From positions 150,716 through 214,715 of the forward strand of contig CAVRDF010000004.1 of NCBI GenBank assembly GCA_963719805.1: 64,000 nucleotides of DNA. The letters run 5' to 3'. Under the pieces are notes generated by a model. It worked only from the letters and a program-made list of their open reading frames with translations, was not told the DNA's origin and did no database searches. Positions 10,088 through 63,693 of the stretch are shown here, in pieces. The position numbers and the translations under genes were made by a program. Position 1 is the stretch's first letter, and every line of letters begins with the position of its first letter. The DNA comes from an uncultured Alphaproteobacteria bacterium (GTDB taxonomy: Bacteria > Pseudomonadota > Alphaproteobacteria > Acetobacterales > Acetobacteraceae).

Positions 10088-10149
10088 CTTTCCTGGCTCG
10101 GGGTGTCCCGATGCGAGATGATTACCGTCACGGCCTTAATCTTCGGCTA

Positions 10150-19249: not shown

Positions 19250-20881
19250 TTGATCCGATTACCGTCTCCGTCGTGCAGCACCGGCTGCACGCCATTGTCG
19301 AGGAGATGGGCGAGGCGATGCTCCGCACCTCGGTACTCGCAGATCCTCAACTCCAGCCGCGATTTTTCCACCGCGATCTGCGACCTGGATGGCCGGCTGA
19401 TAGCTCAGGCCGAGCACGTCCCGATCCATGTCGGCGCGCTGCCCTGGGCGGCGAAAGCAGTCACCGAATTCTTCCGTACCGACATCCATCCGGGCGACGT
19501 TTTCCTGCTGAACGACCCCTATCACGGCGGCAACCATATCCCCGACCTCACCGCCTTCGTCCCCATATTCAATGGCGACAGGCCGATGTTCTGGGCGATC
19601 AACCGTGCGCACCAGAGCGATATCGGTGGTTCGACGCACGGCGCCTACAATGCGGCGGCAACCGAAATCTGGCAGGAGGGCATCCGCGTCACCCCGCTGC
19701 GTCTCTACGACCGGGGCGAAGTGCGGCGCGACGTGCTGGAGATGCTGGTGACCAACGTGCGGCATCCGCACGACTTCCGCGGCGACCTGGCGGCGATGAT
19801 CGGATCGGCGCATGTCGGCCAGCGGCGCATGCTGGCACTGGCGGGGGAGTTCGGCTGGGACACCACGCTGGCGGCGATCGAGGCTGTGCTGGATGGCGCT
19901 GAGCGCCAGGCGCGCGCGGTGATCGCGACATGGAAGGATGGGGTGTACCACGGCGAGGCTTTCCTCGATGACGATGGCCATCGCTACACCGACATCCACA
20001 TCCGCGCCACGGTGACCAAGCGTGGCAGCGATCTGATTGTCGATCTGTCGGATTCGCATGAGCAGGTGGTGGGCTTCGTCAACTCGTCGTTTCCCAACAT
20101 GCGGTCGGCGGTGGTTGTGGCGCTCGCTTATCTGATCGATCCGCACACGCCGAAGAACGATGGCGCCTTCCGCCCGCTCACCGTGATCGCCAAGCCGGGC
20201 ACGGTGGTATGGGCGAACGAAGGCGCGCCGGTGACCCTGTGCACCAACCACTGCTCGCAGGAGATCATGCAGGCGATCATCCTGGCGCTCGCGCCGGCCT
20301 GTCCCGACCGCGCCATGGCAGGGTGGGGGCGGCGTTTCCGCATTGCCATCCAGGGCCGCGATCCGCGCACGGAGAAGCCATTCATCTGGCACATGTTCCA
20401 GGCGCGTCCTGGCGGGGGTGCGTCGCCGGTCGGCGATGGCTGGCCCGGCGGGGGAGAATGGCAGGCGGCCGGCGGCATCAAGTTCGGCAGCCTGGAAGTC
20501 ACCGAGGTGCGGTTCCCGCTGTTCTTCCGGCGGCATGAATTCCGTCCGGGGTCCGGCGGGGACGGCCAGTATCGCGGCGGCCCCGGCTGCGTGCTGGAAA
20601 TGGTGGCGGAGATCGACGAACCGGCGAAGGGCAATACCGCGGGCGACGGTGTGAAGTACGGGGCGTGCGGGATGCTTGGCGGCAATGACGGCTTGCCGCA
20701 TCGCTATGTGCTGCATTCGGAAGGCCGTCAGCAACGTGCGCTGAAGACCAAGGAAGTCGGCATTGAGATCCGGCCCGGGGATGTGTTCCGCATTGAATCA
20801 GGTGGCGGCGGCGGCTGGGGCGATGCCGCCAAGCGCGATCCCGCCGCACGCAAGCAGGATGAGATCAATGGTTTCGTTTGA
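19250..20881 (+). CDS. hydantoinase B/oxoprolinase family protein, N-terminus apparently frameshifted
   Basis: From about 19334 this frame reads YSQILNSSRDFSTAICDLDGRLIAQAEHVPIHVGALP..., which is HyuB-like to the end. The expected N-terminus (L)ADVDPITVSVVQHRLHAIVEEMGEAMLRTS lies in a different frame (TTG 19240 to 19332). The intact gene would therefore span 19240-20881. Confidence 0.85.
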   Translation: MIRLPSPSCSTGCTPLSRRWARRCSAPRYSQILNSSRDFSTAICDLDGRLIAQAEHVPIHVGALPWAAKAVTEFFRTDIHPGDVFLLNDPYHGGNHIPDLTAFVPIFNGDRPMFWAINRAHQSDIGGSTHGAYNAAATEIWQEGIRVTPLRLYDRGEVRRDVLEMLVTNVRHPHDFRGDLAAMIGSAHVGQRRMLALAGEFGWDTTLAAIEAVLDGAERQARAVIATWKDGVYHGEAFLDDDGHRYTDIHIRATVTKRGSDLIVDLSDSHEQVVGFVNSSFPNMRSAVVVALAYLIDPHTPKNDGAFRPLTVIAKPGTVVWANEGAPVTLCTNHCSQEIMQAIILALAPACPDRAMAGWGRRFRIAIQGRDPRTEKPFIWHMFQARPGGGASPVGDGWPGGGEWQAAGGIKFGSLEVTEVRFPLFFRRHEFRPGSGGDGQYRGGPGCVLEMVAEIDEPAKGNTAGDGVKYGACGMLGGNDGLPHRYVLHSEGRQQRALKTKEVGIEIRPGDVFRIESGGGGGWGDAAKRDPAARKQDEINGFV

Positions 20882-20911
20882 AAGCAATATTGTGAGTAGG
20901 GGTATCGCCAC

Positions 20912-39854: not shown

Positions 39855-40574
39855 GTGCAGTTGCTGGGCCTGGATTTTGCCGATCTGGATGTCGAAGCGG
39901 CGACGGAGTTGCTGCTAAAGCGTCCGGCGTCAGCGCCATTCGCTTATGTGACGACGCCGAACGCTGATCACCTGGTTCGGCTGAATCGGCGCCCGGCGCT
40001 GTTGCCGCTGTATCGTGGCGCCATGTTGCGGCTGCTGGACTCGCGTGTCGTTGCCTTGGCGGCTCGGCTGCTCGGCTTGCCGGCGCCTCACGTCGCACCC
40101 GGCAGCGATCTGACGGCATCGTTGATCAGGCGCCTCGCGCCCGGCGAACCCGTCACCATCGTCGGCCTCGCGCCAAGATGGCTGCCCCGCTTGGTGGCGC
40201 GGTGCGGCATCGCCGCGCCGGCACATTACAATCCTCCATTTGGCTTTGAGCACGACCCAGCGGCACTGCGCGCTGCCGTGCAATTCGTGTTGGATCATCC
40301 GGCGCGCTTTGTTTTTTTGGCAGTCGGTTCGCCACGGCAGGAAATCCTGGCGGCGGCAATCAGCGCTACGGGACAGTCTGTCGGTGTGGGGCTGTGCATC
40401 GGTGCAGGCCTGGAATTCATCGCCGGAGCGCAACCTCGCGCGCCGGTCTGGATGCAGCGAGCCCATCTCGAATGGCTGCATCGGCTGGTGATCGATCCGC
40501 GCAAGGCGCGCCGCTATCTGATTGACAGCCCGCCAATCTTTCCGTTGCTGCTACACGAGCGATTGGCGCGGTAA
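39855..40574 (+). CDS. WecB/TagA/CpsF-family glycosyltransferase (GT26)
   Basis: GTG start. Contains YVTTPNADHLV...FVFLAVGSPRQEIL...LCIGAGLEFIAG...AHLEWLHRL, typical GT26 blocks. Confidence 0.8.
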   Translation: MQLLGLDFADLDVEAATELLLKRPASAPFAYVTTPNADHLVRLNRRPALLPLYRGAMLRLLDSRVVALAARLLGLPAPHVAPGSDLTASLIRRLAPGEPVTIVGLAPRWLPRLVARCGIAAPAHYNPPFGFEHDPAALRAAVQFVLDHPARFVFLAVGSPRQEILAAAISATGQSVGVGLCIGAGLEFIAGAQPRAPVWMQRAHLEWLHRLVIDPRKARRYLIDSPPIFPLLLHERLAR

Positions 40575-41546
40575 CAGCCGCCATATGTGGCGCCGAGCGC
40601 ACTCACGATAGGCGATGTCATTGATGCGCAGATAGGTCTGTGTATGCGGCGAAAGGTGCTGCGGCACGGTGCTCGCGGACATCTGGATCGCCGCGGCAAA
40701 AGCCAGCAATGTCTGGACGAATTGATGCCTGCATCCACCCTTCAGCAGATAGAACAGAAGGCGTGGCAACAACGGGAGCCAGCCGTTGCTCCATTTCCGG
40801 CCGATATACAGTCGGTTGCGTACGAAATGATACCAGCGACTGCCGCTCCACTCAAAGCGGCGCTCTGGGCTGACCTTGTGGCGGACGACGAGGTCGCCGC
40901 AATAGCGGACACGCCAGCCTTGCTGGATTGCGCGCAGGCAGAAATCAAATTCTTCCCAGCAGAAGAACAGCGCGTCATCGTATCCGCCACAGGCGTCCCA
41001 GGCGGAACGGCGAATGGCGTGTCCCGCGCCTACAAATGTCACCGCGTCAAAAGAATCGCCGGCATGCGGCAGCAGACCGCTCGGATAGCCCCACGATGAC
41101 AGGTCATCGGTGTCATTTGCATGCATGACTATGCGGCAACCGACAGCCGCAAGCGCCGGTTCGGCATCCAGCGCGGCGACAGCGCGTGCCAGGGTCGTGG
41201 AATCGGCAAACTCCGCATCATTGTCGAGGCCGAAGATGATCCGGCCATGGCCCTGTGCCGAGCCGATATTCCGGCCGCCCGCCACACCATGATTGCCATG
41301 CAGCGCGACTAAGATTGCGTCGTCATGCCGCGCGATCTCCGCTGCCAGCCGCGCGAGGCTTTCCGGCTGGGAACCCTGATCCACCACGATGACGCGGCGC
41401 GATAAACCTGTCTGCTGCAGCGCCGAACGTATCGCCGCCAGCGTCTCTTCGACGCGATCCAATGCAAGGATCACCACATCTGCGTCGTACTCCGTCATCG
41501 CGTCGGAAGTGGGCGGCGAAAGCGATGACGTGGCAGTGCTCCGCAT
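40551..41546 (-). CDS. glycosyltransferase family 2
   Basis: Contains DVVILALDRVEET...VVDQGS...GGRNIG...GLDNDAEF (DxD)...CWEEFDFCLR. Its 3' end overlaps the convergent GT26 gene by 24 nt. Confidence 0.85.
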   Translation of the reverse strand: MRSTATSSLSPPTSDAMTEYDADVVILALDRVEETLAAIRSALQQTGLSRRVIVVDQGSQPESLARLAAEIARHDDAILVALHGNHGVAGGRNIGSAQGHGRIIFGLDNDAEFADSTTLARAVAALDAEPALAAVGCRIVMHANDTDDLSSWGYPSGLLPHAGDSFDAVTFVGAGHAIRRSAWDACGGYDDALFFCWEEFDFCLRAIQQGWRVRYCGDLVVRHKVSPERRFEWSGSRWYHFVRNRLYIGRKWSNGWLPLLPRLLFYLLKGGCRHQFVQTLLAFAAAIQMSASTVPQHLSPHTQTYLRINDIAYRECARRHIWRLLPRQSLV

Positions 41547-41552
41547 CCCAAG

Positions 41553-42533
41553 TTACCCTGGGGGCGGCAGCGAGGGTTGCAGCAGGTACGCCAGTCGCTT
41601 CAGCTCCTTTCTGCCGCGCGAGACCTGATCCAGCACAAGCCCACAGACGAACGACAGAGCTGCCGCCAATACCAGTGCGGTCGTTAGGAGTGCTGTTGGC
41701 AGCCGGGCCACCAGGCCGGTGCGCAGAAACTCGAGCACCACTGACGCGCCGAGGCCGAGACCGATCAGCATCAGCACAGCCGCGGTCAATCCAAACGATT
41801 GCAACGGCCTCTGCTGCTTCGCCAGCACCATGATCGCATGCAGGATGCGCCAACCATCGGCCAGTGTGTGCAGCTTTGACTGCGAGCCGGCGGCCCGGGA
41901 GCGATACTCGGAATCGATTTCTGCAATCGGCATTTCCAGTTCAAGCGCGTGAATGGTGAATTCCGTCTCAATCTCAAATCCCGCTGCGAGAGCAGGGAAG
42001 GATTTGACGAAGCGGCGGCTGAACACCCGGTAGCCGGACAGCACGTCGCTTACGCGATTGCTGAACACGCGATGGACCAGGAAACTCAGCATGCGATTGC
42101 CGAGGCGGTGACCGCGCCGATACGCCTGCATGTTGATCGGCACCCTACTGGCAGTGACCATGTCGAGCTGATGCTCAATCAGATCGCGCACCATCGCAGG
42201 CGCTGCGTCAGGATCATAAGTGTCGTCGCCGTCCACCAGTACGTAGACGTCCGCCTCCACGTCGGCGAACATCCTTCTTACGACGTAGCCTTTGCCTTGC
42301 AGGCTTTCGAAGCGCACCTTCGCTCCGGCCTGCAGCGAGATGTGCCGGGTGCGATCAGTGGAATTGTTGTCGTAGACGTATATTACGGCACCGGGCAGAC
42401 TGCGTTGGAATCCGGCAATCACCTGCGCGACCGCAAGCTCCTCGTTATAGCAAGGGATCAGCACGGCAATGCGGCAGCCGCCAAATGGTTGGCTCAGTCT
42501 TTCCGGCTGAAGCCGGGGCGGGGACCGCGACAT
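41553..42533 (-). CDS. membrane-anchored GT2, polyprenyl-phosphate glycosyltransferase type (GtrB/ArnC/DPM1-like)
   Basis: Contains IAVLIPCYNEE...YDNNSTDRT...VDGDDTYD, plus two C-terminal TM helices (FGLTAAVLMLIGLGLGASVVL and TALLTTALVLAAALSFVCGLVL). Alternative in-frame starts lie at 42572 and 42617. Confidence 0.8.
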   Translation of the reverse strand: MSRSPPRLQPERLSQPFGGCRIAVLIPCYNEELAVAQVIAGFQRSLPGAVIYVYDNNSTDRTRHISLQAGAKVRFESLQGKGYVVRRMFADVEADVYVLVDGDDTYDPDAAPAMVRDLIEHQLDMVTASRVPINMQAYRRGHRLGNRMLSFLVHRVFSNRVSDVLSGYRVFSRRFVKSFPALAAGFEIETEFTIHALELEMPIAEIDSEYRSRAAGSQSKLHTLADGWRILHAIMVLAKQQRPLQSFGLTAAVLMLIGLGLGASVVLEFLRTGLVARLPTALLTTALVLAAALSFVCGLVLDQVSRGRKELKRLAYLLQPSLPPPG

Positions 42534-42561
42534 GATCGCATGATCGCATCGGTCTCCCTGC

Positions 42562-43254
42562 TCAATATGCATTGCACGCGCCCAAGACAGCGCCGAAGGT
42601 CCGGGCCAGGATGACAATGTCGAGCCTCAGCGACCAATGCTCGATGTATTCCAGGTCTGCGTCGACGCGGCGCAGCAGCTTGTCCTCGGTCTTGGTCTCT
42701 CCACGCAAGCCACGGATCTGCGCGAGACCAGTCATCCCCGGCCGGACACAATGGCGGATCGGATAGCGCGGCGTGACCAACTCGAATGGCTTTCCGCCGG
42801 CGCGCGTGCCGGGTGCATGTGGCCTCGGCCCGACCAGCGACATATCGCCGCGCAGCACGTTGATGAGTTGCGGTAGCTCGTCCAGCGACCAGTGTCGCAG
42901 CCAGGCTCCGATGCGCGTCAGCCGGGGATCGTGCCGGCAGGCCTGGGAAAGATGACAGGCGGGTGAGCTCTCGTCCCGCATTGTACGAAACTTCAATGCG
43001 GTGAAGCTCGCATTGTTGAAACCGATCCGGCGTTGCCGGAACAGTGCGCCGCCGGGGCTATCGCAGCGGATCAGCACCGCAATAATCAGCATTGGAATGC
43101 TCGCCAAAGCGAGCAGCAGGCTCGCAACGACAATATCGAACAGCCGCTTGGCCGGACCGTTGCAGCCAAGGCGAGCACGCACTGGGTAGGAATAGGAGAT
43201 CGGGACGCTTGCTAGATCCGAGATCTCGCCGAGGGCATTGGAGGGCTGAAACAT
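42562..43254 (-). CDS. undecaprenyl-phosphate sugar-phosphotransferase (ExoY/WbaP C-terminal type priming enzyme)
   Basis: The 230-aa product has a single N-terminal TM and contains KRLFDIVVASLLL...FRQRRIG...KFRTM...DELPQLINVLRGDMSLVGPRPH...PGMTGLAQI. Confidence 0.9.
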   Translation of the reverse strand: MFQPSNALGEISDLASVPISYSYPVRARLGCNGPAKRLFDIVVASLLLALASIPMLIIAVLIRCDSPGGALFRQRRIGFNNASFTALKFRTMRDESSPACHLSQACRHDPRLTRIGAWLRHWSLDELPQLINVLRGDMSLVGPRPHAPGTRAGGKPFELVTPRYPIRHCVRPGMTGLAQIRGLRGETKTEDKLLRRVDADLEYIEHWSLRLDIVILARTFGAVLGACNAY

Positions 43255-52885: not shown

Positions 52886-54469
52886 ATGAAACGTCGTGAT
52901 GTATTGAAGTCCGCGGTGGCTGGGGCCACCGCTCTTGCCGCGCCGCGCATCGGCTATGCGCAGGACGCCAAGACCATCAACTTCACGCCGCACGCCGATC
53001 TGGCATCGGTCGATCCGGTGTGGACCACCGCCGACATCACCCGCAATTTTTCCCTCGCCGTGTATGACACGCTGTACGGCTACGACGCCGACTTCAACAT
53101 CCAGCCGCAGATGGTCGACGGCCATGTCATCAGCAACGATGGCAAGCAGTGGGAGCTGACGCTGCGCGACGGCCTGGCGTTCCACGACGGCACACCGGTG
53201 TTGGCGCGCGACTGCGTCGCGACGATCCAGCGTTTTGCCAAGCGCGATCCGTACGGTGGCGCGTTGATGGTGCGCACTGATGAACTGTCCGCCCCGTCCG
53301 ACAAGGTGATCCGCTTCCGGCTGAACAAACCGTTTGCGCTGCTGCCGAACGCACTTGGCCAGATCTATTGCGCGATCATGCCGGAGCGGCTGGCGAAGAC
53401 CGACGCGATGCAGCAGGTGTCCGAGGCCGTCGGTAGCGGGCCGTTCAAGTATGTCGCCAGCGAGCGCGTTTCCGGTCAGCGGGTCGTTTATGTGAAGAAC
53501 GACAAGTACGTGCCGCGCAAGGAAGGCAAACCGAGTTTCAACGCCGGCCCGAAAATCGTCTATGTCGACCGCGTGGTCTGGAACTTCATCCCCGACCCGG
53601 CGACAGCCGCCGCCGCGCTTACGCAGAAGGAGATCGACTGGTGGGAAAACCCGACCATCGATCTCGTACCACAGCTCCGGCGCGACAAGGATCTGACGCT
53701 GGCGGTGAAGGACCGCACCGGCGAAATCGGCTGCCTGCGCTTCAACCATCTGTTTCCGCCATTCGACAACCCGGCGATCCGCCGCGTGGTGGTGGCGGCT
53801 ATCGATCAGAAGGAGATCATGGAGGCGGTAGCCGGCGCGGATCCCAGCCTGATCAAGACAGACGTCGGTATTTTCGTCCCCGGCACCCCGATGGCCAGCA
53901 CCGTCGGGGTCGAGAACACCCGTGGGCCGAAGAACTATGACAAGCTGAAGCAGGATTTGGTGGCGGCTGGCTACAAAGGAGAGAAAGTCGTCATCCTGGC
54001 GGCTTCCACCATCCCGACAATCTGGGCCGAGGCGCAGGTCGCCTCCGATGTGCTGAAGAAAATTGGCTTCAACACCGACTTCCAGTCGCTGGAGTGGGGC
54101 ACCGTGGTAGCGCGGCGCGCCAGCAAGGAACCGGTCGACAAGGGCGGCTGGAACATTTTCTACACCTACCTTGGCGGCTTCGGGAACATCTCGCCGGCGC
54201 CAGCCATTCCAATCCAGAGCAGCGGGACCAACGGAAGCTGGTTCGGCTGGCCGACCGATCCGAAGATGGAGGAGCTGCGCGCTGCCTGGTTCGATGCCCC
54301 GGACGTAGCGGGACAGAAGAAGATCAGCGACGAGATGCAGGCGGCGTTCTGGCAGAGCCCGCCTTATGCGCCACTGGGCATGTACGTGCAGCCGACGGCC
54401 TACCATAACTACCTGACGGACGTGCGGGACGGCTGGCCACAATTCTACGGCGTGAAAAAGAACGCGTAG
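52886..54469 (+). CDS. ABC transporter substrate-binding protein, family 5
   Basis: Tat-type signal MKRRDVLKSAVAGATALAAPRIGYAQ. The sequence is SBP_bac_5-like and paralogous to the 25996 gene (shared ...HDG.PVLARDC...). Confidence 0.9.
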   Translation: MKRRDVLKSAVAGATALAAPRIGYAQDAKTINFTPHADLASVDPVWTTADITRNFSLAVYDTLYGYDADFNIQPQMVDGHVISNDGKQWELTLRDGLAFHDGTPVLARDCVATIQRFAKRDPYGGALMVRTDELSAPSDKVIRFRLNKPFALLPNALGQIYCAIMPERLAKTDAMQQVSEAVGSGPFKYVASERVSGQRVVYVKNDKYVPRKEGKPSFNAGPKIVYVDRVVWNFIPDPATAAAALTQKEIDWWENPTIDLVPQLRRDKDLTLAVKDRTGEIGCLRFNHLFPPFDNPAIRRVVVAAIDQKEIMEAVAGADPSLIKTDVGIFVPGTPMASTVGVENTRGPKNYDKLKQDLVAAGYKGEKVVILAASTIPTIWAEAQVASDVLKKIGFNTDFQSLEWGTVVARRASKEPVDKGGWNIFYTYLGGFGNISPAPAIPIQSSGTNGSWFGWPTDPKMEELRAAWFDAPDVAGQKKISDEMQAAFWQSPPYAPLGMYVQPTAYHNYLTDVRDGWPQFYGVKKNA

Positions 54470-54571
54470 GCAGACGCTTCAGCCCCCGCGCTCAGCTAGT
54501 GTTGCGCGTAATTCTCAGGGGGTGAGACAAGCTTTTGCTTTTCTGGCGGGCAACTTCCCGGTAACCCTGCG

Positions 54572-54587
54572 CCGTATAGTTATACGG
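54572..54587. promoter_or_regulatory. AT-rich perfect palindrome 20 nt upstream of the sulfotransferase ATG (candidate operator)
   Basis: CCGTATA-gt-TATACGG. It stands out in a GC-rich context. Confidence 0.3.
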
Positions 54588-54607
54588 ATTGCCGGACCCG
54601 ACGGATC

Positions 54608-55624
54608 ATGTCGATCGCAACGCCCATCAAGCCTATCGAAGAGCCTTTGGCGGCCAACCGCCAGGAGGATGGCGAGACGCCATTCTTCATTTGCGGCTGT
54701 GGCCGATCCGGCACCACGCTCCTGCGTGCGGTCATGCTCGGACACTCCCGGCTGAACGTCTCTCCGGAAACTCACTACATCCGGCACCTTGTCGGCCATG
54801 TCTCACTGAGCGGCCGGCTCTCGCCCGAGCAGGTAACGGATGCGGTCAATCGCATCCTGGCGCACCCTCGCTGGAGGGAAATGGAAATCGCCGACGCCGA
54901 GTTCCGCGCCGAAGCGATGGCATTGCCGTCTCCTCGATTGGGAGACGTGCTGAATCTGGTCTACCAACGCCATGCACGCGCGGCCGGCAAAGCGCGACCT
55001 GGCGACAAAACCCCAGACTACATTCGCTACGTGCCGCAGTTGCTGGAAATTTACCCGGACGCAAAATTCATCCATTTGGTGCGCGACGGTCATGACGTCG
55101 CCGTGTCTTATGCCGAGGTGGGCTGGGGTCATGCCTACCAAGGGGAAGAATTCGAATGGACGCAAGCGGTGCGCGCCGCTCTGTCATATCGCAACGAGCC
55201 CTTCGCCGATCGTATTCTGGAAGTCCGCTACGAAGACATGGTGGTGGATCTGGAAGGGACGATACGTCGGATCTGCGCCTTTCTCGGCGAGGATTTCGAG
55301 CCTGCCATGCTGCAATGGCACGGGCAGGTCGGCCAGCTATCGGGCGAACAAGCGAGTTTGCATACGAAATTGCGTCAACCGCTCCTGTCGGACGCCGTTG
55401 CCGCCTGGCGGCGGAAGTTGACCGCGGTGCAGTGCTTCCTCATCGAGGCGTCGCTTTATCGCGACCTGGAAGCAATGAACTACCAGCTGCGATATTCAGG
55501 TGCCTTCTGGCGTCTTGCACTGGTTCCTGCCGGTGCGGCGATGCATGCGTTGGCGCCGTTCCTCGATCGCGCGTTGCCAGCGCTGAAGCGCCGAAATTAT
55601 CTCCGCGGTCCAGTGTATATATAG
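54608..55624 (+). CDS. sulfotransferase-family protein
   Basis: PAPS 5'-phosphosulfate-binding loop FFICGCGRSGTTLLRAVM and a 3'-phosphate-binding-like region KFIHLVRDGHDVAVSY. Confidence 0.85.
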   Translation: MSIATPIKPIEEPLAANRQEDGETPFFICGCGRSGTTLLRAVMLGHSRLNVSPETHYIRHLVGHVSLSGRLSPEQVTDAVNRILAHPRWREMEIADAEFRAEAMALPSPRLGDVLNLVYQRHARAAGKARPGDKTPDYIRYVPQLLEIYPDAKFIHLVRDGHDVAVSYAEVGWGHAYQGEEFEWTQAVRAALSYRNEPFADRILEVRYEDMVVDLEGTIRRICAFLGEDFEPAMLQWHGQVGQLSGEQASLHTKLRQPLLSDAVAAWRRKLTAVQCFLIEASLYRDLEAMNYQLRYSGAFWRLALVPAGAAMHALAPFLDRALPALKRRNYLRGPVYI

Positions 55625-55625
55625 C

Positions 55626-56736
55626 ATGGCCGGGAGTTCAGCTGTTTCGCTGTCATCGGCCACATCTGCACCGATGACTGGTACACGCATGCGCGCGGAG
55701 GTCCTGCCGCCTTCCGCGCTTGGCCGCAGCGAGATCCAGCTCTGGCACAATATCCTCGAGGCATCGCCTCATCTGCAGCGTGCCTTCTTCACTCCGGCTT
55801 TTGCATTGGCCTGCGAACGGGCGATCGGCCGTGCCTACGTCGCGGTTCTACATGCCAATGGGACCGTGCGGGGTTTTCTGCCATTCCAGTTCCGCAGCAG
55901 GTGGCATCAGACCATCCGCATGGCCGATCGGATCGGTGGTAATTTATCCGACAACGCTGGGCTGGTTGCCTGGCCGGACGTCAGGACCGAACTCGTCAAA
56001 CCTGCTGCGCCTTTGTGGCCTGGCATCGCTGACGCTCAGTCACTTGATGCCGGATCAGGGACGGTTCGGGCTGGACGCCGAGTGGACGGATATCGGCTAT
56101 GTCACTGACCTCAGCGATGGCCCCGATGCCTATTTTGCCGGCTTGCTGGCACGCAACAAGGATTTTGTCCGCGACACCGAACGCCGCCTGCGAAAGACGC
56201 AAAAGGACTATGGGCCGCTGTCGATGCGCGACGAGCGACCGGTAACGCCAGACGCCATCGCGGGTCTCGTTGCCTTGAAGCGTCAGCAATATCAGCGGAC
56301 ACAGGTCGCCGATGCATTCGCAGAGCCGACCACGTTGCAAATCATCGACGCTTTGCGGAACTCGCCAACAGCAGACTGTGAACTGGTACTGGCTGCCTTG
56401 CACGCCGGCGACGCAATGTTGGCGGCACATCTGGGGCTACAGCACAACGGCGTGCTCAGTTGGTGGTTCCCCGTCTATGACCCTGCGGCGCAGGGTGTTT
56501 CTCCGGGGCGGCTGTTGCTGTGGCGAATGATCCAGCGCGCCCAAGAGAGTGGGACCCGCCTGATCGATTACGGCGCGGGCGACGCACAGTACAAGCGGCA
56601 ATTCTCCACCGAAAACCTGCAGATGGGCCGTGCCGTCTGGACCGCGGGCAACGCGCGCTCATTGCTGGCTCGCGCCTGGCAGTCTCTTGAGTGGCGGATC
56701 GCGCGTCGCTCGACTGCCAAGGCGAAGCAGAACTAG
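55626..56736 (+). pseudogene. CelD/FemAB-like GNAT acyltransferase, interrupted by a 1-nt frameshift
   Basis: The N-terminal half (frame of 55626, good up to ...AGLVAWPDVRTELV) and the C-terminal half (frame of 55720, good from NLLRLCGLASLTLSHL... through ...GVSPGRLLLWRMIQRAQESGTRLIDYGAGDAQYKRQF) join cleanly if one A is removed from the AAA run at 55998-56000. Confidence 0.75.
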
Positions 56737-56744
56737 CGGCCGGA

Positions 56745-57713
56745 ATGAGTGTGCCCACACCTTTGGTGACGGTGGTGATACCGGCGTTCAATGCGGCCGA
56801 GACGATAACTCGTGCCGTGGACTCGGCGCTGGCTCAGACATTCGCAGATTATGAAATCATCATTATCGATGACGCGAGTACGGACGCGACAGCCGAGGTT
56901 GTTGTCAGTCAATACGGGAAACGTGTCACCTTGCTTCGTTTGCCGCAGAACCTCGGCGAAAGCGGTGCGATGAATGCGGGGATCGTTGCGGCGAGGGGTG
57001 AGTTGATCGCCTTCCTGGATGCGGATGACGCGTGGTTGCCAGGGAAGCTGGCGAGGCAGGTGACGGAAATGCAGCAAAGGCCTGCCTGCTCGATTGTGGT
57101 TTGCGGGTGCCGCTTCATCAAACGTGCTGGGAAGGCATCGCGTGACGATGTCGTTGGCATACTCCCTGTCGCACCCGATGAGGTCTGGCGCCTGCTGTTG
57201 GCAAGGACGTTGATTGCAAAGCCCTGTGTTTTGGCGCGCGCCAGAGCGCTGCATCAGGCTGGTCCATTCGATACCACCCTGGCGGTGGGCGCCGATCAGG
57301 ATATGTGGATACGATTGGCGTTGGTCGGCAGCGTGATATTTGTACCGGAGATACTTACTATCGCCTACGACACCGCAGGCAGCCTCACCAAGGTCTATGC
57401 CGACAAGATCGACCGCTACATGCTTCCCATGATCGGGCGTCATGTGGACGCGCAGCGGCATCGGTTATCCCGCCGGGAGATCAGGGAAATCTGGGGAGAG
57501 CGATACACCTCGATCGGACGCAACCTGTATGCAGCGGGATCGTTTGGCCGCGGTGCGGCGTTGATCCTACAGGGGATCTCGCACGGGCACAGCATTGGCT
57601 CGAACCTATGGTATCTGCTGACCGCGTCGCGCCCGGTGCGGACATTGAAGCGCCTCATCTCCCCACTGATGGGCGGCGGCGAGCACGGCTTGTCCGGGAA
57701 CTACACGGCATGA
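56745..57713 (+). CDS. glycosyltransferase family 2 (paralogue A)
   Basis: Contains VTVVIPAFNAAETI...IIIDDASTD...GESGAMNAG...FLDADDAWLP (DxD). Confidence 0.9.
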   Translation: MSVPTPLVTVVIPAFNAAETITRAVDSALAQTFADYEIIIIDDASTDATAEVVVSQYGKRVTLLRLPQNLGESGAMNAGIVAARGELIAFLDADDAWLPGKLARQVTEMQQRPACSIVVCGCRFIKRAGKASRDDVVGILPVAPDEVWRLLLARTLIAKPCVLARARALHQAGPFDTTLAVGADQDMWIRLALVGSVIFVPEILTIAYDTAGSLTKVYADKIDRYMLPMIGRHVDAQRHRLSRREIREIWGERYTSIGRNLYAAGSFGRGAALILQGISHGHSIGSNLWYLLTASRPVRTLKRLISPLMGGGEHGLSGNYTA

Positions 57714-58726
57714 CATCGTTCCGGCCGTTACTACGCAAAGCAGCCTATCGCAGCGGCGTATTGTCGCTCGTTCGTCATGGTGTACGGCAGGCGCTTACCG
57801 CCATCATGCTCCATCGCGTCGTGGATCCTGCGGATCCGGATTTTCCGCACGACGACCCGACCTACACGGTCTCTGCACCGCTTTTCGATCAGTTCCTGGA
57901 TTTCGTGCAGGACCATTACACGGTGGTCGACATACACCAGGTCATGCAAGCGTGCGCCGGTGCCAAACCTCTGCCTGAGCACGCGATGCTGATCACCTTT
58001 GACGATGGGTGGGCTGACAATCTCCGGTATGCGGCACCGCTGCTGCAGGCTCATTCGATGCCAGCGATCATCTTCGTCGCGGCAGAGGCAGTGCTGAACA
58101 ACTCGATGGCATGGTGGCATGAGCAAGTCTTCGCGGCGGATCGCTCAGGATTGCTGACCGGCTGGCTGGAGAATGACACCGTTCGCAAGCTGGTTGCCGG
58201 CAAGGACACCGCAGCTGCCGGAATGCATCCGCTTGAAGTGGTGACGCGGCTGGCCAAGATGGAACCCGACGATCGCGCGCCAATCCTGGCAACGCTGCCA
58301 TCGCGCCCGTGCCATTCCCGTATGATGCTGCGTCCTGATGAGTTACCGAAACTGGCGTCGTTTGGCATCGATGTCGGTGTGCATGGCTATCGCCATGTTC
58401 CGTTGACCGCAATCGATGATGTGCAAACCGAACTGTCGCGCTCGCGGGAGGCGATTGCCTGCGCCTCTCAAGGTGCGGCAGTCACCACTGCACTTGGGTG
58501 TCCGCATGGACGCTATAACGAACGCGTCGTCGCCGGGGCACACGCGGCAGGCATCAAGCTCGTTTTCACCAGCGATGAAGTGCTGAATACGACCCGAAAC
58601 GGCATGCTGACGACGGACCGTCCATTTGGCCGGGTGGCAATTCCGGCGCTTGCGGTCCAGTCCAGTCGTGACCGGCTGGATCGCGGCAAGGCAGCGCGCT
58701 GGTTGTGGGACCGGAAATGTCAGTAA
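57710..58726 (+). CDS. polysaccharide deacetylase (NodB-homology, CE4)
   Basis: ATGA overlap with the upstream GT2. Contains the NodB motifs MLITFDDGWADN and GVHGYRHVPL. Confidence 0.85.
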   Translation: MTSFRPLLRKAAYRSGVLSLVRHGVRQALTAIMLHRVVDPADPDFPHDDPTYTVSAPLFDQFLDFVQDHYTVVDIHQVMQACAGAKPLPEHAMLITFDDGWADNLRYAAPLLQAHSMPAIIFVAAEAVLNNSMAWWHEQVFAADRSGLLTGWLENDTVRKLVAGKDTAAAGMHPLEVVTRLAKMEPDDRAPILATLPSRPCHSRMMLRPDELPKLASFGIDVGVHGYRHVPLTAIDDVQTELSRSREAIACASQGAAVTTALGCPHGRYNERVVAGAHAAGIKLVFTSDEVLNTTRNGMLTTDRPFGRVAIPALAVQSSRDRLDRGKAARWLWDRKCQ

Positions 58727-60792
58727 CCATGCTTCAGCAGGACGGCACGAGCAGGACCGCGCCAACGGTTACCGTGCTTATCCCGGCATATAACGCCGCG
58801 AGCACAATTCGACGGGCGATTGATTCGGTTTTCGCACAGTCCTACCAAGACTACGAAGTCATCGTCGTTGACGATGGGAGCCGTGACACAACATCCGATG
58901 TTGTCGCGTCGTATAGTGACGAACGGATCAGGCTCCTCAAGCTGGCGCAAAACTGCGGTGAAAGCGGGGCCATGAATGAAGGCATCGCTGCCGCACGCGG
59001 GGAGCTGGTTGCGTTTCTGGATGCCGATGATGAGTGGTTGCCGCAGAAGCTGAGCAAGCAGGTCGAAGCACTGCAGAAGCAGCCCGCGATGATTATGGCG
59101 ACATGCGGCTGCCGCTTCACCGACGCTGAAGGGACGGTCTATCGCGAATTTGGCATGCCGCCCGCTGGACTTGATGAGAACAAGGTGTGGCGTTCGTTGC
59201 TGTCCGGCAGCTTCATTGCGAAGCCATGCGTGGTCGCGCGCACTTCCGCGCTCCGCACCGTGGGACCGTTTGATACGGCTCTTGCCATTGCGGCCGACCA
59301 GGATATGTGGATCAGGCTGGCCATGGCCGGACCGGTGGCATTCATCCATGAGTATCTCACTATCGTGCATGATACGCCCGGCAGCCTGACAAGGGTGTAT
59401 GCAACAAAGGCCGACAAGTACGTGCTGCCAATGATCATGCGGCACATCACGGCTCAGCGTCACCAGTTGTCGGACGCCGAAGTGCAGCAAATCCTTGGTG
59501 CACGCTATACGTCTGTCGGACGCAACCTGTATCTGACCGGTTCGCTCGTACGTGGCACGCGGCTCATCATGCGCGCTGTGGCAAAGGATCATCTGGTTCA
59601 GGAGAACCTCTGGTATCTCGCAGCGGCGTCGCCGCCGGCGAAGGCTGTGAAAAGGCTGGTAGGACACCCGGCGAGCAAGCGCAAAGCGGTAGGGGCCGTC
59701 CAGCCGTTGGCAGCCAATGACGGGGTGCTGATAGCCCCGCATGAACGGGCCTTTGCAGTGGTGCCGCCGGGACCCCCCATTCTCATCGTCATGATCGATG
59801 CAGAGGCCGAGTTCGACTGGAATGGCCCATTTCTGCGCTCGCACATGAGCGTGCGGAACATGAGCCAACAGGCGTTGGCGCAGGACATTTTCGATCGGCT
59901 TGGCGTTCGTCCGACCTATCTGGTCGATTATGCGGTGGCTACCCAGTCGGAAGGCTTTGGGCCGCTTCGCGAATTTCTCCAGTCGGACCTTTGTGAAATT
60001 GGCAGTCATCTGCAGCCGTGGGAGAATCCGCCGTTTTCCGAGGAGCTGAGTGTTCAGACCTCGTTCAATACCAACCTCCCGGCATGGCTGCAGAAGGAGA
60101 AATTGCTGCGGCTCACGGATGCAATCGTCAGTACTTTTGGCATCCGGCCGTCTTCGTATCGCGCGGGGCGCTACGGCGTGGGCGAGGAGATCGCCTGGAT
60201 TCTCGACGCGCTCGACTACCAGATCGATCTCAGCGTGTTGCCGGGTCATGACCTGCGGCGGCGCCACGGACCTGACTTTCGGCGCTCAAGCAATCGGCCC
60301 TACTGGTTCGGTCCCGGTCAGAAGCTGCTCGAGATTCCGCTGACCACCGGCTTCTCTGGCCTGTTGTCGAGTGGCCGTGAGCCTCAGTCGGCCAATGCGA
60401 CACTATATTCGGCACTCTCCGGACCCGCCGGCACCAGGTTGCACTTGCCGGGGATTTTTGCGCGTCTCGGCCTGCTCGAGCGGATTACGCTGTCGCCGGA
60501 AGGCATGTCTATCGAGGAGCTCAAACGGCTGACACGTCTGCTTGTGCGGCGTGGGCAGCACGTGTTCACTTTCAACTATCACAGTTCGGCACTCCTGCCG
60601 GGATACACACCCTATGTGCGCTCGCAGACCGAGCTCGATGGATTGATACGAACAATCGAAGAGTATCTTCACTTCTTCATGGGGGAGATTGGCGGCATCT
60701 CGATGACGCCGATGCAGTTCCTCTCGCATGTACGTCCGCCGGCACGAAAGGTCACGCAGGCTCATAGCCGTGTCAACTCTCTGGTGACGTGA
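58717..60792 (+). CDS. bifunctional fusion: GT2 (paralogue B) + WalW-like carbohydrate-esterase/deacetylase-type domain
   Basis: The N-terminal ~330 aa are collinear with the 56745 GT2 (VTVLIPAYNAASTI...VVDDGSRD...GESGAMNEG...FLDADDEWLP). A Pro/Ala linker follows. The C-terminal ~330 aa start ILIVMIDAEAEFDWNGPF...SYRAGRYGVG.... An alternative ATG lies at 58729. Confidence 0.8.
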   Translation: MSVTMLQQDGTSRTAPTVTVLIPAYNAASTIRRAIDSVFAQSYQDYEVIVVDDGSRDTTSDVVASYSDERIRLLKLAQNCGESGAMNEGIAAARGELVAFLDADDEWLPQKLSKQVEALQKQPAMIMATCGCRFTDAEGTVYREFGMPPAGLDENKVWRSLLSGSFIAKPCVVARTSALRTVGPFDTALAIAADQDMWIRLAMAGPVAFIHEYLTIVHDTPGSLTRVYATKADKYVLPMIMRHITAQRHQLSDAEVQQILGARYTSVGRNLYLTGSLVRGTRLIMRAVAKDHLVQENLWYLAAASPPAKAVKRLVGHPASKRKAVGAVQPLAANDGVLIAPHERAFAVVPPGPPILIVMIDAEAEFDWNGPFLRSHMSVRNMSQQALAQDIFDRLGVRPTYLVDYAVATQSEGFGPLREFLQSDLCEIGSHLQPWENPPFSEELSVQTSFNTNLPAWLQKEKLLRLTDAIVSTFGIRPSSYRAGRYGVGEEIAWILDALDYQIDLSVLPGHDLRRRHGPDFRRSSNRPYWFGPGQKLLEIPLTTGFSGLLSSGREPQSANATLYSALSGPAGTRLHLPGIFARLGLLERITLSPEGMSIEELKRLTRLLVRRGQHVFTFNYHSSALLPGYTPYVRSQTELDGLIRTIEEYLHFFMGEIGGISMTPMQFLSHVRPPARKVTQAHSRVNSLVT

Positions 60793-60807
60793 GCGGACAG
60801 TGTTCGG

Positions 60808-61992
60808 TTGAACATCACTCCGGAATTCACCATCGAAGAGATTGCCGGTGCGGATGAACTTGCACCGGTCTGGGTAGAACTCGAGGCCCGTGCTGACGCT
60901 CCATTCTATCTTTCATGGGATTGGATCGGATGCTGGCTGCGAGAGGCAAAGCTGCGGCCCACAGTGCTGGCCGGCCGTATCGCGGGACGCATCGTTTTGC
61001 TGGCTGTGGTGACGCCGGCGAGTCGGCGCGATGTGCTGCCGATCGCCTTCCACGGGCTGCATCTGAACATGAGCGGCGTGCCGGCACAGGATATCATCAC
61101 AACCGAATATAATGGCTTTCTGATTGATCGTGACTGGGCAGGCAGCATCGAATCGAAGGCCATTGCATTTCTCTTGCGTGGACTCGTTGTGGCTGGTCAG
61201 CGCCGTGACGAGCTGCATTTGAAGAATGTGGCGGATGGCTTTCAGCGATGGCTGCCTGAAAGCGGCCTGACCGTGCGTGAATTGCAGCGCAAACCGTCCT
61301 GGCGCGTCGACCTCAGTGCTATCCGTGTGGGAGAGAAGTCGTACCTCAACGGTCTGAGTTCAAACACCCGTCAACAGATCCGCCGCTCGATGCGGCTTTA
61401 TGAACAGCATGGCAAACTGTCCGCATCGCGCGCCGCGACGGTGCCGGAAGCGCTGGAGTACCTCGATGGACTGGCCGAACTGCACCAGCGCTATTGGAAC
61501 AGCCGCGGTGAACCGGGGGGCTTTTCGTTCCAATTCTTCGCGGCGTTTCAGCGGAGCCTGATACAGACCTGCCTGCCGCGCGGCACCGTCGAAATCATCA
61601 AGGTCGCCGCTGGCGATCATATCATCGGCTATGTCTACAACATGGTCTACCGCGGCGAGGTGAGTGCATATCAGACCGGCTTCAATTACGAAAGCGATGC
61701 ACGATTGAAGCCCGGCCTGGTCAGTCATACGCTGTGCATTGAACAGCATATACGCGACGGTTCCGCCGTGTATGATTTTCTGGCTGGCGAACATCGTTAC
61801 AAGGCGAACCTGGGTGACCCGGGTCCCGATCTGATTTACCTGCTGGCGGAGCGTCCAACCCTAGCATTGATGGCTGAGACCCGGTTGCACGATGCAAGGC
61901 GCAAACTGGGGGCGGTTTGGAGGCAATTGCGTCAGACCCATCGGGTCGGTGCTAGCCCGCGTGCACACCGCGCGTCGAACGTTGATCCGTGA
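60808..61992 (+). CDS. CelD/FemAB-like GNAT acyltransferase (intact paralogue)
   Basis: TTG start. Contains [11 protein letters not shown]...[11 protein letters not shown]...[22 protein letters not shown]...[14 protein letters not shown]...[11 protein letters not shown] (Acetyltransf_6/CelD-type blocks). Its 3' end overlaps the convergent UXS gene by 41 nt. Confidence 0.75.
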
Positions 61993-62932
61993 GCAACCGG
62001 CCAAAGTAGGCAATGGTCTGTCCAAGGCCGACGTCCAGTCCCACCGTTGGTTCCCAACCCAGGATCCGCCGCGCCAGGCCAATGTCCGGACAACGCTGCA
62101 TCGGGTCGTCTTGCGGCAGTTCACGATAGGTAATCCGAGACTTGGAAGCGGACAGGCGCATCACACGATTGGCCAATTCGCTCACCATGACCTCGTGCGG
62201 ATTGCCAAGATTGATCGGCCCGGTGAAGTCGTCACCCGTGGCCATCAGTCGGACCAAACCATCGATCAGATCGTCGACATAGCAAAAGGCCCGCGTCTGG
62301 CTGCCGCTGCCATACAGCGTGATGTCCTGACCCTGCAGCGCCTGGACAATAAAGTTCGATACGACCCGGCCGTCGTTCGGGTGCATGCGCGGACCGTACG
62401 TGTTGAAGATTCGCGCCACCTTGATGCGTGTGTGATGTTGCCGGGAATAGTCGAAAAACAGCGTCTCCGCACAACGCTTGCCTTCATCGTAGCATGCGCG
62501 CGGACCCAACGGATTGACGTTGCCCCGATAGTCCTCCGGCTGAGGATGGACCGTCGGATCGCCGTACACTTCGCTCGTGGAGGCTTGCAGGATCTTTGCG
62601 CCAATCCGTTTGGCGAGGCCAAGCATGTTGATCGCGCCAATTACACTGGTCTTTGTGGTCTGCACCGGGTCGAATTGGTAATGCACCGGCGAGGCCGGGC
62701 AGGCCAGATTGTAGATTTCGTCGACTTCGATATACAGCGGGAAGGTGATGTCATGCCGCATAGCCTCGAAGTGCGGATCGCCGATCAGGTGGGCGATATT
62801 GTCCTTCCGGCCAGTGAAGTAATTATCGACACACAGCACATCATCGCCGTCGCGCAGCAGCCGTTCGCATAGATGCGAACCCAGGAAGCCGGCGCCACCG
62901 GTTACCAACACACGCTTGCGCGTGAGTGTCAT
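61952..62932 (-). CDS. UDP-glucuronate decarboxylase (UDP-xylose synthase)
   Basis: Contains [39 protein letters not shown], catalytic YDEGKR and [11 protein letters not shown]. The product is UXS-like end to end. Confidence 0.9.
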
Positions 62933-63693
62933 TACCCTGCGCTTCGCAAGCAGGTCGCCCGGTCTGCAGGTGGTCCGAATTCGCGCGGCCGCAGCCCAGC
63001 GTGGAACCAGGTGATCAGCGAATAGATGTCATAGATTGGCAGGCCCAGTGCCTCGCGCAGCGCGAATGCGTAAGGCGGCATGTTGGTGCACTCGAGCACG
63101 ATTGCGCCGATATCGGGATGGCGCGCCACCAACCGTCGCCCGGCGTCCAGGATATCCGCGGCGGCCAGTGCTACGTCCATGTCCTGTTTCTCGCCGCGCA
63201 CCAGCACGCGGAAGAATTCGCGGCCGTCCTCAGTGCCGATAAATGGCGTATCGGGTGGGACGCCTGCCGCCGCAAGGTGCCGCGGCGTGAGTGACTGGCC
63301 CGAGACCGTGATGACACCGACGCGCTTGCCGGGCGGCAACGTCTGTTGCACCCAGGGCACCTGGATCAGCGAACTGGTGGCAACCGGGACCCGCACGTGC
63401 GCGGCCAGTTCGGCCTGGAATAGCGACAGGAATCCGCAGTTGGTGGTAATCGCCTCGGCACCTTGATCCACCAGTTCCGCCGCCGCCGACAGGAAGGCAT
63501 CCAGCAGCCCGGCCGCCGCATTCAGCACCACACGCTCCGGCGTGGCGCCTTTCACCACGCGATACAGCACGGGAAATGGCCACGTCGTGGCATTGCCCAT
63601 GTCACCAGGAATGCGCGGAAACCGCGCCTCCAGCATAAGGATACCCAGCGGTGCGCCATATAGCGCCTTGCCGCCCTTGGCGATGATCTGCAT
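62932..63693 (-). CDS. Asp/Glu/hydantoin-racemase-superfamily protein
   Basis: The 253-aa product contains [12 protein letters not shown] and [11 protein letters not shown], the two Cys-containing half-site motifs of this superfamily. Its stop overlaps the UXS start (TAATG). Confidence 0.7.

Follow-up and report, generated by a model that had tools for sequence, protein, structure and literature searches.

What kind of molecule is built by a gene set that couples a sulfotransferase to glycosyltransferases, deacetylases and acyltransferases? The question is raised by a stretch of 64,000 nucleotides from an uncultured alphaproteobacterium of the Acetobacteraceae (assembly GCA_963719805.1, contig CAVRDF010000004.1, positions 150,716 to 214,715), the whole of which is referred to here as the window. 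Positions 54608-61992 of the window form a genuine six-gene operon from a soil alphaproteobacterium. It is an uncharacterised variant of the known systems that tailor polysaccharides and adhesins. All six genes lie on the plus strand in the order below, where the two domains of one fusion protein are listed separately.

54608-55624, plus strand: ST, a sulfotransferase of the 3'-phosphoadenosine 5'-phosphosulfate (PAPS) type, 338 amino acids (Pfam Sulfotransfer_3, 1.3e-38; Sulfotransfer_1, 1e-11; motifs)
55689-56736, plus strand: GNATA, a CelD/BcsL-type tandem GNAT, 348 amino acids once its frame is repaired (Acetyltransf_6, 8e-32 on the repaired protein)
56745-57713, plus strand: GT2A, a soluble GT-A glycosyltransferase of family 2 (GT2), 322 amino acids (Glycos_transf_2, 7e-35; DDAS and DADD motifs)
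57710-58726, plus strand: CE4, a polysaccharide deacetylase with NodB homology, 338 amino acids (Polysacc_deac_1, 8e-16; TFDD and HGYRH motifs)
58717-59700, plus strand: GT2B, the GT2 domain of a 691-amino-acid fusion protein (Glycos_transf_2, 3e-37 on the first 230 residues)
59761-60792, plus strand: the WalW-like domain of the same fusion protein (gene 58717-60792), predicted by an AlphaFold2 model to have a CE4-superfamily fold
60808-61992, plus strand: GNATB, a second CelD/BcsL-type tandem GNAT, 394 amino acids with a TTG start (Acetyltransf_6, 4.5e-27; FemX-like AlphaFold2 model)

The operon probably encodes cytoplasmic enzymes that extend and tailor the undecaprenyl-diphosphate-linked repeat unit of a Wzx/Wzy-dependent surface polysaccharide, be it an exopolysaccharide (EPS), capsule, O-antigen or adhesin. 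This reading draws on the gene content of the operon, the intactness of its genes and the purifying selection upon them, their families and folds, the topology of their products, and their recurrent coupling with one another and with Wzx/Wzy genes. Hydropathy analysis found no signal peptide and no transmembrane (TM) helix or bundle in any of the six proteins, so all of them should act at the cytoplasmic face. Together with the co-occurrence and fusion of their relatives with Wzx/Wzy components, this makes stepwise tailoring of a lipid-linked repeat unit the best explanation.

The substrates, the order of the steps, the acyl donor, the site of sulfation and the export system are inferred in the following model. 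Two non-processive GT2 paralogues would each add a sugar, probably an N-acetyl-hexosamine, from which CE4 and the WalW-like domain fused to GT2B would strip acetyl groups and so expose amines. GNATA and GNATB, which are distantly related Fem-fold tandem GNATs, would then re-acylate those amines, or hydroxyls, with a group other than acetyl, using a donor that could be an acyl-CoA or an aminoacyl-tRNA. The PAPS-type sulfotransferase would add sulfate, and Wzx, Wzy, Wzc and Wza encoded elsewhere, with candidates in the same window, would flip, polymerise and export the product. An earlier note, made from the DNA sequence without database searches, had proposed this succession of glycosyl transfer, deacetylation, re-acylation by Fem-fold GNATs and PAPS-type sulfation, and the logic fits both the domain assignments and the ranking of structural matches to GNATB described below.

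The genes lie close together. All six plus-strand open reading frames (ORFs) of the earlier note were recovered at the same coordinates, and Pfam assigned Sulfotransfer_3, Acetyltransf_6 (4.9e-32, obtained on the second half of the split GNATA gene, and 4.5e-27), Glycos_transf_2 and Polysacc_deac_1 to them. The ATGA overlap at 57710-57713 is seen in the sequence, as is the 10-nt overlap at 58717-58726, where the ATG at 58717 begins ten bases inside the CE4 gene. The 1-nt gap described at 55625 is real insofar as a TAG at 55622-55624 is followed by an ATG at 55626, but this is an alternative upstream start for GNATA; alignments of homologues and the gene call in a near-identical contig favour the ATG at 55689, which leaves a gap of 64 nt. 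Scans for promoters and terminators returned fewer sites than shuffled sequence and nothing that marked the operon boundaries, and an Rfam scan of the window found no RNA element. A megablast of the operon against PLSDB plasmids gave no match, and an exact look-up of the 691-amino-acid fusion protein returned no record. The best genome matches are from uncultured Acetobacteraceae and other Alphaproteobacteria.

Are these genes intact and under selection? In the window a +1 frame break splits GNATA, as had been reported, and it corresponds to one extra base at about 55989-55990. The window reads CCGAACT at this point, whereas an Illumina-derived Logan contig (L085) reads CCGACT and an ENA contig (L001) reads CCAACT. 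Aligned over 8148 nt, L085 and the window share 98.9% identity, and the only gap is the extra base in GNATA. All six genes are present and intact in L085 in an unchanged order, and its GNATA, of 348 amino acids, begins at the counterpart of the ATG at 55689. At the codon level, the two differ across the six genes by 51 synonymous and 24 nonsynonymous changes (11 and 5 in GNATA alone), and synonymous changes are in the majority in every one of the genes. This excess indicates purifying selection, and thus that the genes are real and not chance ORFs. It is very improbable that the locus is a decaying remnant of which one gene is already frameshifted. The extra base in this assembly would suit such decay, but the 98.9%-identical strain has all six genes intact, synonymous changes outnumber nonsynonymous ones even in GNATA, and the indel falls on a polymorphic position, as is typical of consensus error. 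Since the indel coincides with a single-nucleotide polymorphism and the gene is intact in L085, the frameshift is not a property of the locus, contrary to how it had been presented; the extra base is either a consensus artefact or a private mutation. Programmed frameshifting was considered and ruled out, given the uninterrupted frame in near-identical strains and the polymorphism at the site.

The earlier note described the operon as two versions of one three-part module, each with a GT2, a deacetylase or esterase and a GNAT. The two GT2s are indeed paralogues, with 57% identity over 302 amino acids (E 8e-129). Both score far above the Glycos_transf_2 cutoff of 23.3 bits (GT2A 120.8, GT2B 128.4), carry the DDxS and DADD motifs and have no TM bundle, GT2A showing nothing beyond a core strand in its hydropathy profile; by these features both are assigned to the GT-A, non-processive EPS type. 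Duplication is confined to this pair. GNATA and GNATB share 22% identity over 78 amino acids (BLASTP, E 0.016), a profile of the GNATB family reaches GNATA at E 3e-4 in the C-terminal GNAT lobe only, and CE4 and the WalW-like domain gave no BLAST match to each other and an hhalign E-value of 0.67. A neighbour-joining tree places GT2A with the unfused GT2 of L005, which represents the L005/L090 type of locus, and GT2B with the GT2s of L002 and L003, which are fused, so the paralogy is old and predates the split of these lineages. A recent duplication of the whole module in situ was ruled out by the pairwise and profile comparisons and by this tree. In other genomes the conserved unit consists of CE4, GNATA, a WalW-like protein and one GT2.

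Two proteins of the operon are candidates for removing acyl groups. CE4 scores 58.6 bits against the Polysacc_deac_1 cutoff of 23.1 and carries a TFDD motif (residues 96-99) and an HGYRH motif (residues 225-229) with an insertion of about 75 residues between them, which places it, on sequence grounds, in the CE4/NodB-homology deacetylase family. Over roughly its first 100 residues it is similar to the beginning of the deacetylase domain of PgaB, but a signal peptide is absent. The WalW-like domain (~340 residues) matched no Pfam or NCBIfam model. Sequence searches of the PDB found no usable match with the WalW family profile and no match with GNATB, and fold searches were therefore used for both. 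The AlphaFold2 model of the WalW-like domain (pLDDT 83, pTM 0.85) is matched best by Foldseek to a putative polysaccharide deacetylase (3rxz), H. pylori HP0310 and ArnD; the top PDB entries 3rxz, 3qbu and 8t0j (ArnD) have E-values of 7e-9 to 5e-7 and TM-scores of 0.5-0.6, and GH57 enzymes and classical CE4 enzymes occupy the next ranks. The predicted structure is thus a (beta/alpha)-barrel of the type found in the CE4/deacetylase superfamily. ArnD, itself CE4-like, removes a formyl group from an amino sugar that is linked to a lipid. Of the residues conserved in the WalW family, the window's protein keeps the invariant D56, H83 and H274 as well as D13, E15 and E17, which are almost invariant.

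The family to which this domain belongs is large. An exhaustive profile search retrieved 2913 clusters at 50% identity, 1000 of them at E <= 1e-30, under source names such as 'WalW protein', 'polysaccharide deacetylase family protein' and 'glycosyltransferase'. Among ten long members that were scanned (from P0241-P0388), the domain is fused to GT2s, GT4s and Wzx-type flippases, each in either order, and in one further type to a low-molecular-weight phosphotyrosine phosphatase and an ATP-grasp domain. True GT2-WalW fusions occur in this clade and in metagenome-assembled genomes of another alphaproteobacterium, of Flavobacteriaceae and of Marinimicrobia; besides the latter two, the count stands at this clade plus two other alphaproteobacterial lineages. 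In Elioraea the GT2 and WalW proteins are encoded by neighbouring separate genes. Fusions to glycosyltransferases and to Wzx tie the domain to the assembly of lipid-linked repeat units, and this pattern argues for its action on the glycosyltransferase's product while this is still on the cytoplasmic side, ahead of flipping.

Which group would be placed on the exposed amines is a question for the two GNATs. Their Acetyltransf_6 scores (GNATA 111.5 bits and GNATB 95.4 bits, against a cutoff of 22) assign both proteins, by sequence, to the CelD/BcsL family. FemAB models of Pfam and NCBIfam reported no match to the operon proteins. The AlphaFold2 model of GNATB (pLDDT 91) shows two GNAT lobes and a long helix at the C-terminus, and its 13 best Foldseek matches are all aminoacyl-tRNA-dependent enzymes, including FemX of Weissella viridescens, Sba18, Sbb17 and the C-domain of MprF synthase. 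The match to FemX (1ne9) has an E-value of 2e-12 and TM-scores of 0.58/0.66, and the aminoacyl-tRNA transferases overall span E 2e-12 to 1e-9 and TM-scores of 0.5-0.68 at a sequence identity of 12-14%. According to their PDB titles, Sba18 and Sbb17 were deposited with streptothrisamine bound. The model thus supports GNATB as a CelD/BcsL tandem GNAT with a FemABX fold, and makes an aminoacyl-tRNA donor possible without the fold establishing it. As a separate observation, the last ~20 residues of GNATB are unconserved among homologues and of low confidence in the model.

A serious, if doubtful, possibility is that both GNATs are ordinary transferases of acetyl-CoA or short acyl-CoAs, which, with two deacetylases in the same pathway, merely tune the acetylation of the polymer and add no unusual acyl group. 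Both proteins belong to Acetyltransf_6 in the GNAT clan, and homologues carry the names 'CelD/BcsL family acetyltransferase' or 'GNAT family N-acetyltransferase'; the former applies to most of the 470 homologues of GNATB, which come mostly from Acetobacteraceae-like metagenomic bins. Foldseek also gives significant, if lower, matches to tandem GNATs that use acetyl-CoA (VipF, Eis and the clavulanate tandem GNAT), and for HfsK, a Fem-like GNAT of Caulobacter, the donor is unknown (PMC5362036). The ranking of the 13 best matches, with TM-scores above those of the acetyl-CoA enzymes, speaks against this possibility, and it would be uneconomical for two deacetylases to strip acetyl groups only for their re-addition. 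A more specific proposal goes further: GNATA, GNATB or both would depend on aminoacyl-tRNA and would aminoacylate the amines that CE4 and the WalW-like domain unmask on the lipid-linked unit, after which ST would add sulfate, possibly on the added residue, to give an N-aminoacylated, sulfated EPS in soil Acetobacteraceae. In this full form the proposal is speculative and rather unlikely to be correct.

ST itself is a clear member of its family. It scores 133.9 bits against the Sulfotransfer_3 cutoff of 27 over model positions 1-216 of 216, and its GCGRSGTT (residues 30-37, resembling the 5'-PSB P-loop) and VRDGHD (residues 158-163, 3'-PB) motifs indicate a PAPS-dependent sulfotransferase; identical copies of the protein occur on other contigs. 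Genomic context suggests that its acceptor is a carbohydrate. In L094, L069 and L084, which are unrelated Wzx/Wzy settings, homologues with 44-48% identity adjoin genes that resemble GNATA. L084 has two ST homologues that flank a CE4 gene, together with a GT2-WalW fusion, inside a complete Wzx/Wzy locus. In L094 the ST homologue and a gene resembling GNATA (54% identity) are transcribed away from each other and lie between Wzx, a Sulfotransfer_2 protein and a Wzy_C/DUF5935 protein, and L069 has the order ST, ST, GNATA, followed by GT2 and CE4. Across these loci the steadiest partner of ST is GNATA, and not the deacetylases.

If the operon tailors a repeat unit, where is the machinery for its assembly and export? 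The window contains the following candidates.

4156-5832, minus strand: Wzx-type flippase (Pfam/NCBIfam)
5580-7202, minus strand: Wzy candidate, a 540-amino-acid ORF with at least 7 hydrophobic or TM segments and no family match (hydropathy)
6865-7929, minus strand: epimerase (Pfam/NCBIfam)
7862-10087, minus strand: Wzc-type polysaccharide co-polymerase/tyrosine kinase (Pfam/NCBIfam)
10051-10737, plus strand: Wza with Poly_export and SLBB domains, divergent (Pfam/NCBIfam)
39855-43254, mixed strands: second glycan mini-locus with a WecG/TagA-type transferase (plus), two GT2s (minus) and a Bac_transf priming phosphoglycosyl transferase (minus) (Pfam)

The earlier statement that the segment has no flippase, polymerase or exporter of its own thus holds for the six genes, but the same window encodes a priming transferase, Wzx, Wzc and Wza, and a Wzy in the form of a multi-TM candidate, all 11-50 kb from the operon. 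The mini-locus is set apart from the operon by the genes for the peptide ABC-transporter and the molybdenum (Mo) hydroxylase. In another genome (L087) the same set of Wzx, unknown gene, Wzc and Wza stands 4 kb from a homologue of GNATB, and in L084 and L094 such genes likewise neighbour tailoring genes; those of the window may serve the operon's polymer or another one.

Several observations weigh against the tailoring of a lipid-linked repeat unit as the role of the whole operon. A distance of 44-50 kb separates the flippase, the polymerase candidate and the exporter from the operon, and their polymer may be a different one; moreover, GNATA is frameshifted in this particular assembly. In the WalW-like domain the second His of an HxH-like motif (HLHPW) that is common in the family is replaced by Gln (SHLQPW). 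Literature searches on Acetyltransf_6 (PF13480), WalW, and FemX with aminoacyl-tRNA and polysaccharide found no biochemical characterisation of these families. The remaining points concern ST. Among solved structures, those nearest to it in sequence are the CurM/OLS sulfotransferases and TPST, which act on acyl-ACP (acyl carrier protein) or protein tyrosine and not on sugars. Homologues of ST are also found alone, with no glycan genes within 8 kb: in L092 at the same chromosomal site without any cassette, and in L093 among housekeeping genes. In L083 and L088 ST is a resident of the flanking region and is encoded on the opposite strand.

These features of ST would also suit an enzyme that is independent of the glycan genes, one that belongs to the conserved flank, has a peptide, a lipid or a small molecule as its substrate and is by chance co-oriented with a mobile cassette. 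Such independence is fairly unlikely, given the 44-48% identical homologues that stand beside GNATA-like, CE4 and GT2-WalW genes inside unrelated Wzx/Wzy loci (L084, L094, L069) and the mere 1-64 nt between ST and the next gene in the window. With solitary and inverted copies in relatives, the link between ST and the glycan genes rests on co-orientation here and recurrence elsewhere.

Where on the glycan sulfate would be placed is a related question. N-sulfoglucosamine occurs in heparan sulfate, and the Sulfotransfer_1 family includes heparan-sulfate enzymes. By analogy with NDST, ST could N-sulfate the amine exposed by CE4 or the WalW-like domain while the GNATs act at other positions; a deacetylase and a sulfotransferase are co-encoded, ST also matches Sulfotransfer_1 at 1e-11, and two STs flank CE4 in L084. 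We consider this arrangement improbable, since ST has no specific similarity to the sulfotransferase domains of NDST, its best solved relatives being CurM ST and TPST, and its most constant partner is GNATA and not a deacetylase.

The combination of enzyme classes had also prompted a comparison with the tailoring of Nod factors. This parallel survives as an analogy: the order of GT2, CE4, N-acyltransferase and sulfotransferase is shared, and weak matches to the NodC, NodB and NoeE models are present. All of the equivalog tests fail, with 33.4 and 46.3 bits against a cutoff of 550 for NodC, 16.6 against 240 for NodB and 30.2 against 500 for NoeE. The GT2s are non-processive and lack the TM helices of processive synthases, the acyltransferases are from another family with no NodA-family protein present, there is no NodIJ exporter, and the context is that of polysaccharide assembly, relatives being found in Wzx/Wzy and PEP-CTERM polysaccharide loci. 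That the operon makes a secreted lipo-chito-oligosaccharide like the Nod factors, by chemistry of the NodC/NodB/NodA/NodH type, is therefore extremely improbable.

How did the six genes of this presumed tailoring pathway come together? The operon is flanked on one side by a block of peptide-type ABC-transporter and Mo-hydroxylase genes, and on the other by the convergent gene for a UXS-like short-chain dehydrogenase/reductase (SDR) and by an Asp/Glu racemase gene.

61952-62932, minus strand: UXS-like SDR resembling UDP-glucuronate decarboxylase, the conserved convergent neighbour of GNATB (Pfam Epimerase/GDP_Man_Dehyd)

The 3' ends of the GNATB and UXS-like genes overlap by 41 nt (61952-61992). 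The UXS-like gene is 84-88% identical and adjoins GNATB in L005, L023, L083, L088 and L090. The site as a whole (52886-63693 in the window) is shared among related genomes, with the order Mo-hydroxylase, SBP_bac_5, (DAO), ST at one end and UXS, racemase at the other, and the cassette between these ends differs from bin to bin as follows.

L092: ST alone
L088: ST (minus strand), GNATB, UXS
L005 and L090: ST, GT2A, CE4, WalW (minus strand), GNATB, UXS
L091: ST, unknown gene, GNATA, GT2-WalW fusion, CE4
L083: ST (minus strand), insertion sequence, GNATA, GT2-WalW fusion, CE4, GNATB, UXS
Window and L085: all these parts, both GT2s included

By gene content, this site is a hotspot for the swapping of cassettes in Acetobacteraceae-like genomes, and the arrangement in the window looks like a mosaic of two cassette types that met at a recombination hotspot. 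Two details of the relatives may be added: the insertion sequence that accompanies an inverted ST in one of them encodes a DDE_3 transposase, and L005/L090 retain a 98-amino-acid fragment of ST on the opposite strand.

A lower G + C content had been noted for the segment. It is lower, but only modestly (60.2% for the operon and 62.7% for the window). At third codon positions the operon genes have 65-71% G + C and the flanking genes 80-83%, and the other glycan genes of the window have 71-74%. Such a small dip, with a drop at third positions that is common to the window's other glycan genes, is not diagnostic of horizontal acquisition. A horizontally acquired island was considered on this evidence, and base composition does not decide the matter.

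Outside the shared site, a search for synteny showed that the core of the operon recurs in complete Wzx/Wzy or XrtA/PEP-CTERM loci. The fusion protein was used to fetch 80 genome loci; CE4 and a GNAT occur together with WalW or ST in eight of them, and only two have an ST. The CE4-GNATA-GT2-WalW core is present in Elioraea tepidiphila, E. rosea and two further alphaproteobacterial bins. In E. tepidiphila it lies beside PEP_O_lig_1, PrsT, PrsR and PrsK, all above their NCBIfam cutoffs, which marks the locus as an XrtA/PEP-CTERM EPS locus. In this cultured type strain (DSM 17972; L006, 4776-21684) the core is also accompanied by a PMT_2 GT-C protein, a HAD-UbiA fusion and a GT4, and the strain offers a tractable organism for testing the module. 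On a Sphingomonas megaplasmid, a WalW-like gene adjoins a glycosyltransferase of the XrtA system. The guess that relatives of these genes would lie in exosortase/PEP-CTERM loci has therefore been borne out for both organisms. In the window itself, neither an exosortase nor a PEP-CTERM regulator was found among the scanned ORFs, and Wzc shows distant similarity, below cutoffs, to PEP-CTERM chain-length and kinase proteins.

Which known system does the operon resemble most? The best reading is by analogy, as a counterpart of HfsG, HfsH and HfsK of the Caulobacter holdfast with sulfation added. There, the Fem-like GNAT HfsK has been proposed to acylate amines that the CE4 enzyme HfsH exposes on precursors (PMC5362036). 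Similarly, the Wzx/Wzy pathway for the unipolar polysaccharide (UPP), an adhesin of Agrobacterium, involves two paralogous BcsL-like GNATs, UppA and UppQ (bioRxiv 10.1101/2021.04.22.440995). Shared features are a dependence on Wzx/Wzy (here inferred), a soluble GT2, a cytoplasmic CE4, FemX-like tandem GNATs with more than one paralogue, and an alphaproteobacterial host. The holdfast and UPP systems differ in having neither a sulfotransferase nor a WalW-like domain, and polar localisation and control by cyclic di-GMP are not evidenced for the window operon. The likeness is functional and not orthologous: the window GT2s are not equivalogs of HfsG (25.0 and 27.6 bits against a cutoff of 500), and HfsH and HfsK are likened by description only.

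A second point of comparison is provided by the XrtA/PEP-CTERM exosortase EPS loci, in which a polysaccharide deacetylase is found together with a member of the FemAB family (Haft et al. 2006, PMC1569441). Homologues of the core lie in such a locus in Elioraea tepidiphila, as described, but the GNATs and CE4 of the window, like the other operon proteins, match no PEP-CTERM-specific NCBIfam model at E <= 0.01. Searches of the operon proteins against NCBIfam gave sub-threshold matches only (TuaG, EpsE and WcaA-type GT2s, the PgaB N-terminus, and NoeE). With the HfsG, NodC, NodB, NoeE, PgaB and PEP-CTERM models either missed widely or unmatched, the operon does not, by these profile scores, belong to any defined equivalog family. 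Among individual enzymes, the GNATB model comes closest in structure to FemX, Sba18/Sbb17 and the MprF C-domain, although the low identity already given separates them from it.

Sulfated polysaccharides provide further comparisons. Synechan is a sulfated EPS made by the xss cluster of Synechocystis PCC 6803 (PMC8205485), which is likewise a Wzx/Wzy-type EPS locus with sulfotransferases of the Sulfotransfer_3/1 families. ST of the window is 28% identical (E 2e-16) to one of two sulfotransferases annotated in the xss plasmid region. This similarity is distant, and the xss locus differs in being cyanobacterial and plasmid-borne and in lacking a Fem-like GNAT, CE4 or WalW. In Sinorhizobium meliloti, a Clr-regulated cluster on pSymB encodes three sulfotransferases and an N-acetylglucosamine deacetylase and is predicted to make a sulfated surface polysaccharide (PMC5498481). 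Alongside S. meliloti LpsS, it represents the sulfated surface glycans of rhizobia, with sulfotransferases and a deacetylase set among the polysaccharide genes of an alphaproteobacterium; ST of the window is, however, ~25% identical to Sinorhizobium plasmid sulfotransferases, the gene sets differ, and the pSymB product is itself uncharacterised. Sulfotransferases have also been predicted in an EPS locus of an Actinoplanes cluster (PMC13390465).

The interest of the operon lies in the joining of a sulfotransferase, two Fem-like GNATs and two types of deacetylase in one compact, conserved unit. Fem-like GNATs of the CelD/BcsL/HfsK type are genetically important in Caulobacter and Agrobacterium, and their chemistry is unknown. 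The recurrent pair of ST and GNATA in unrelated Wzx/Wzy loci offers a compact system in which the donor and acceptor of such a GNAT could be found. To our knowledge, sulfated bacterial polysaccharides are rarely documented outside cyanobacteria. Were the donor an aminoacyl-tRNA, tRNA would have a new role in glycan biosynthesis, and a sulfated EPS from outside that group would be made with a tRNA-dependent step. The large, unmodelled WalW-like family, with its fusions to glycosyltransferases and flippases, points towards a widespread and unstudied modification of lipid-linked repeat units.

Other genes of the window deserve brief mention. Hydantoinase/oxoprolinase A and B subunits are encoded at 19250-22951 and an Asp/Glu/hydantoin racemase at 62932-63693. 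RraA-like and amidohydrolase genes lie at 11.5-13.6 kb, and, with hydantoinase and racemase genes, they recur beside the operon site in L083 and L091. These hydantoinase/racemase-type genes are probably concerned with amino-acid or hydantoin metabolism and unrelated to the operon. Finally, an 868-amino-acid protein encoded on the minus strand (22957-25563) combines a calpain-type Peptidase_C2 domain (1e-19) with an RTX nonapeptide repeat, and is a candidate for an unusual bacterial calpain-like secreted protease.

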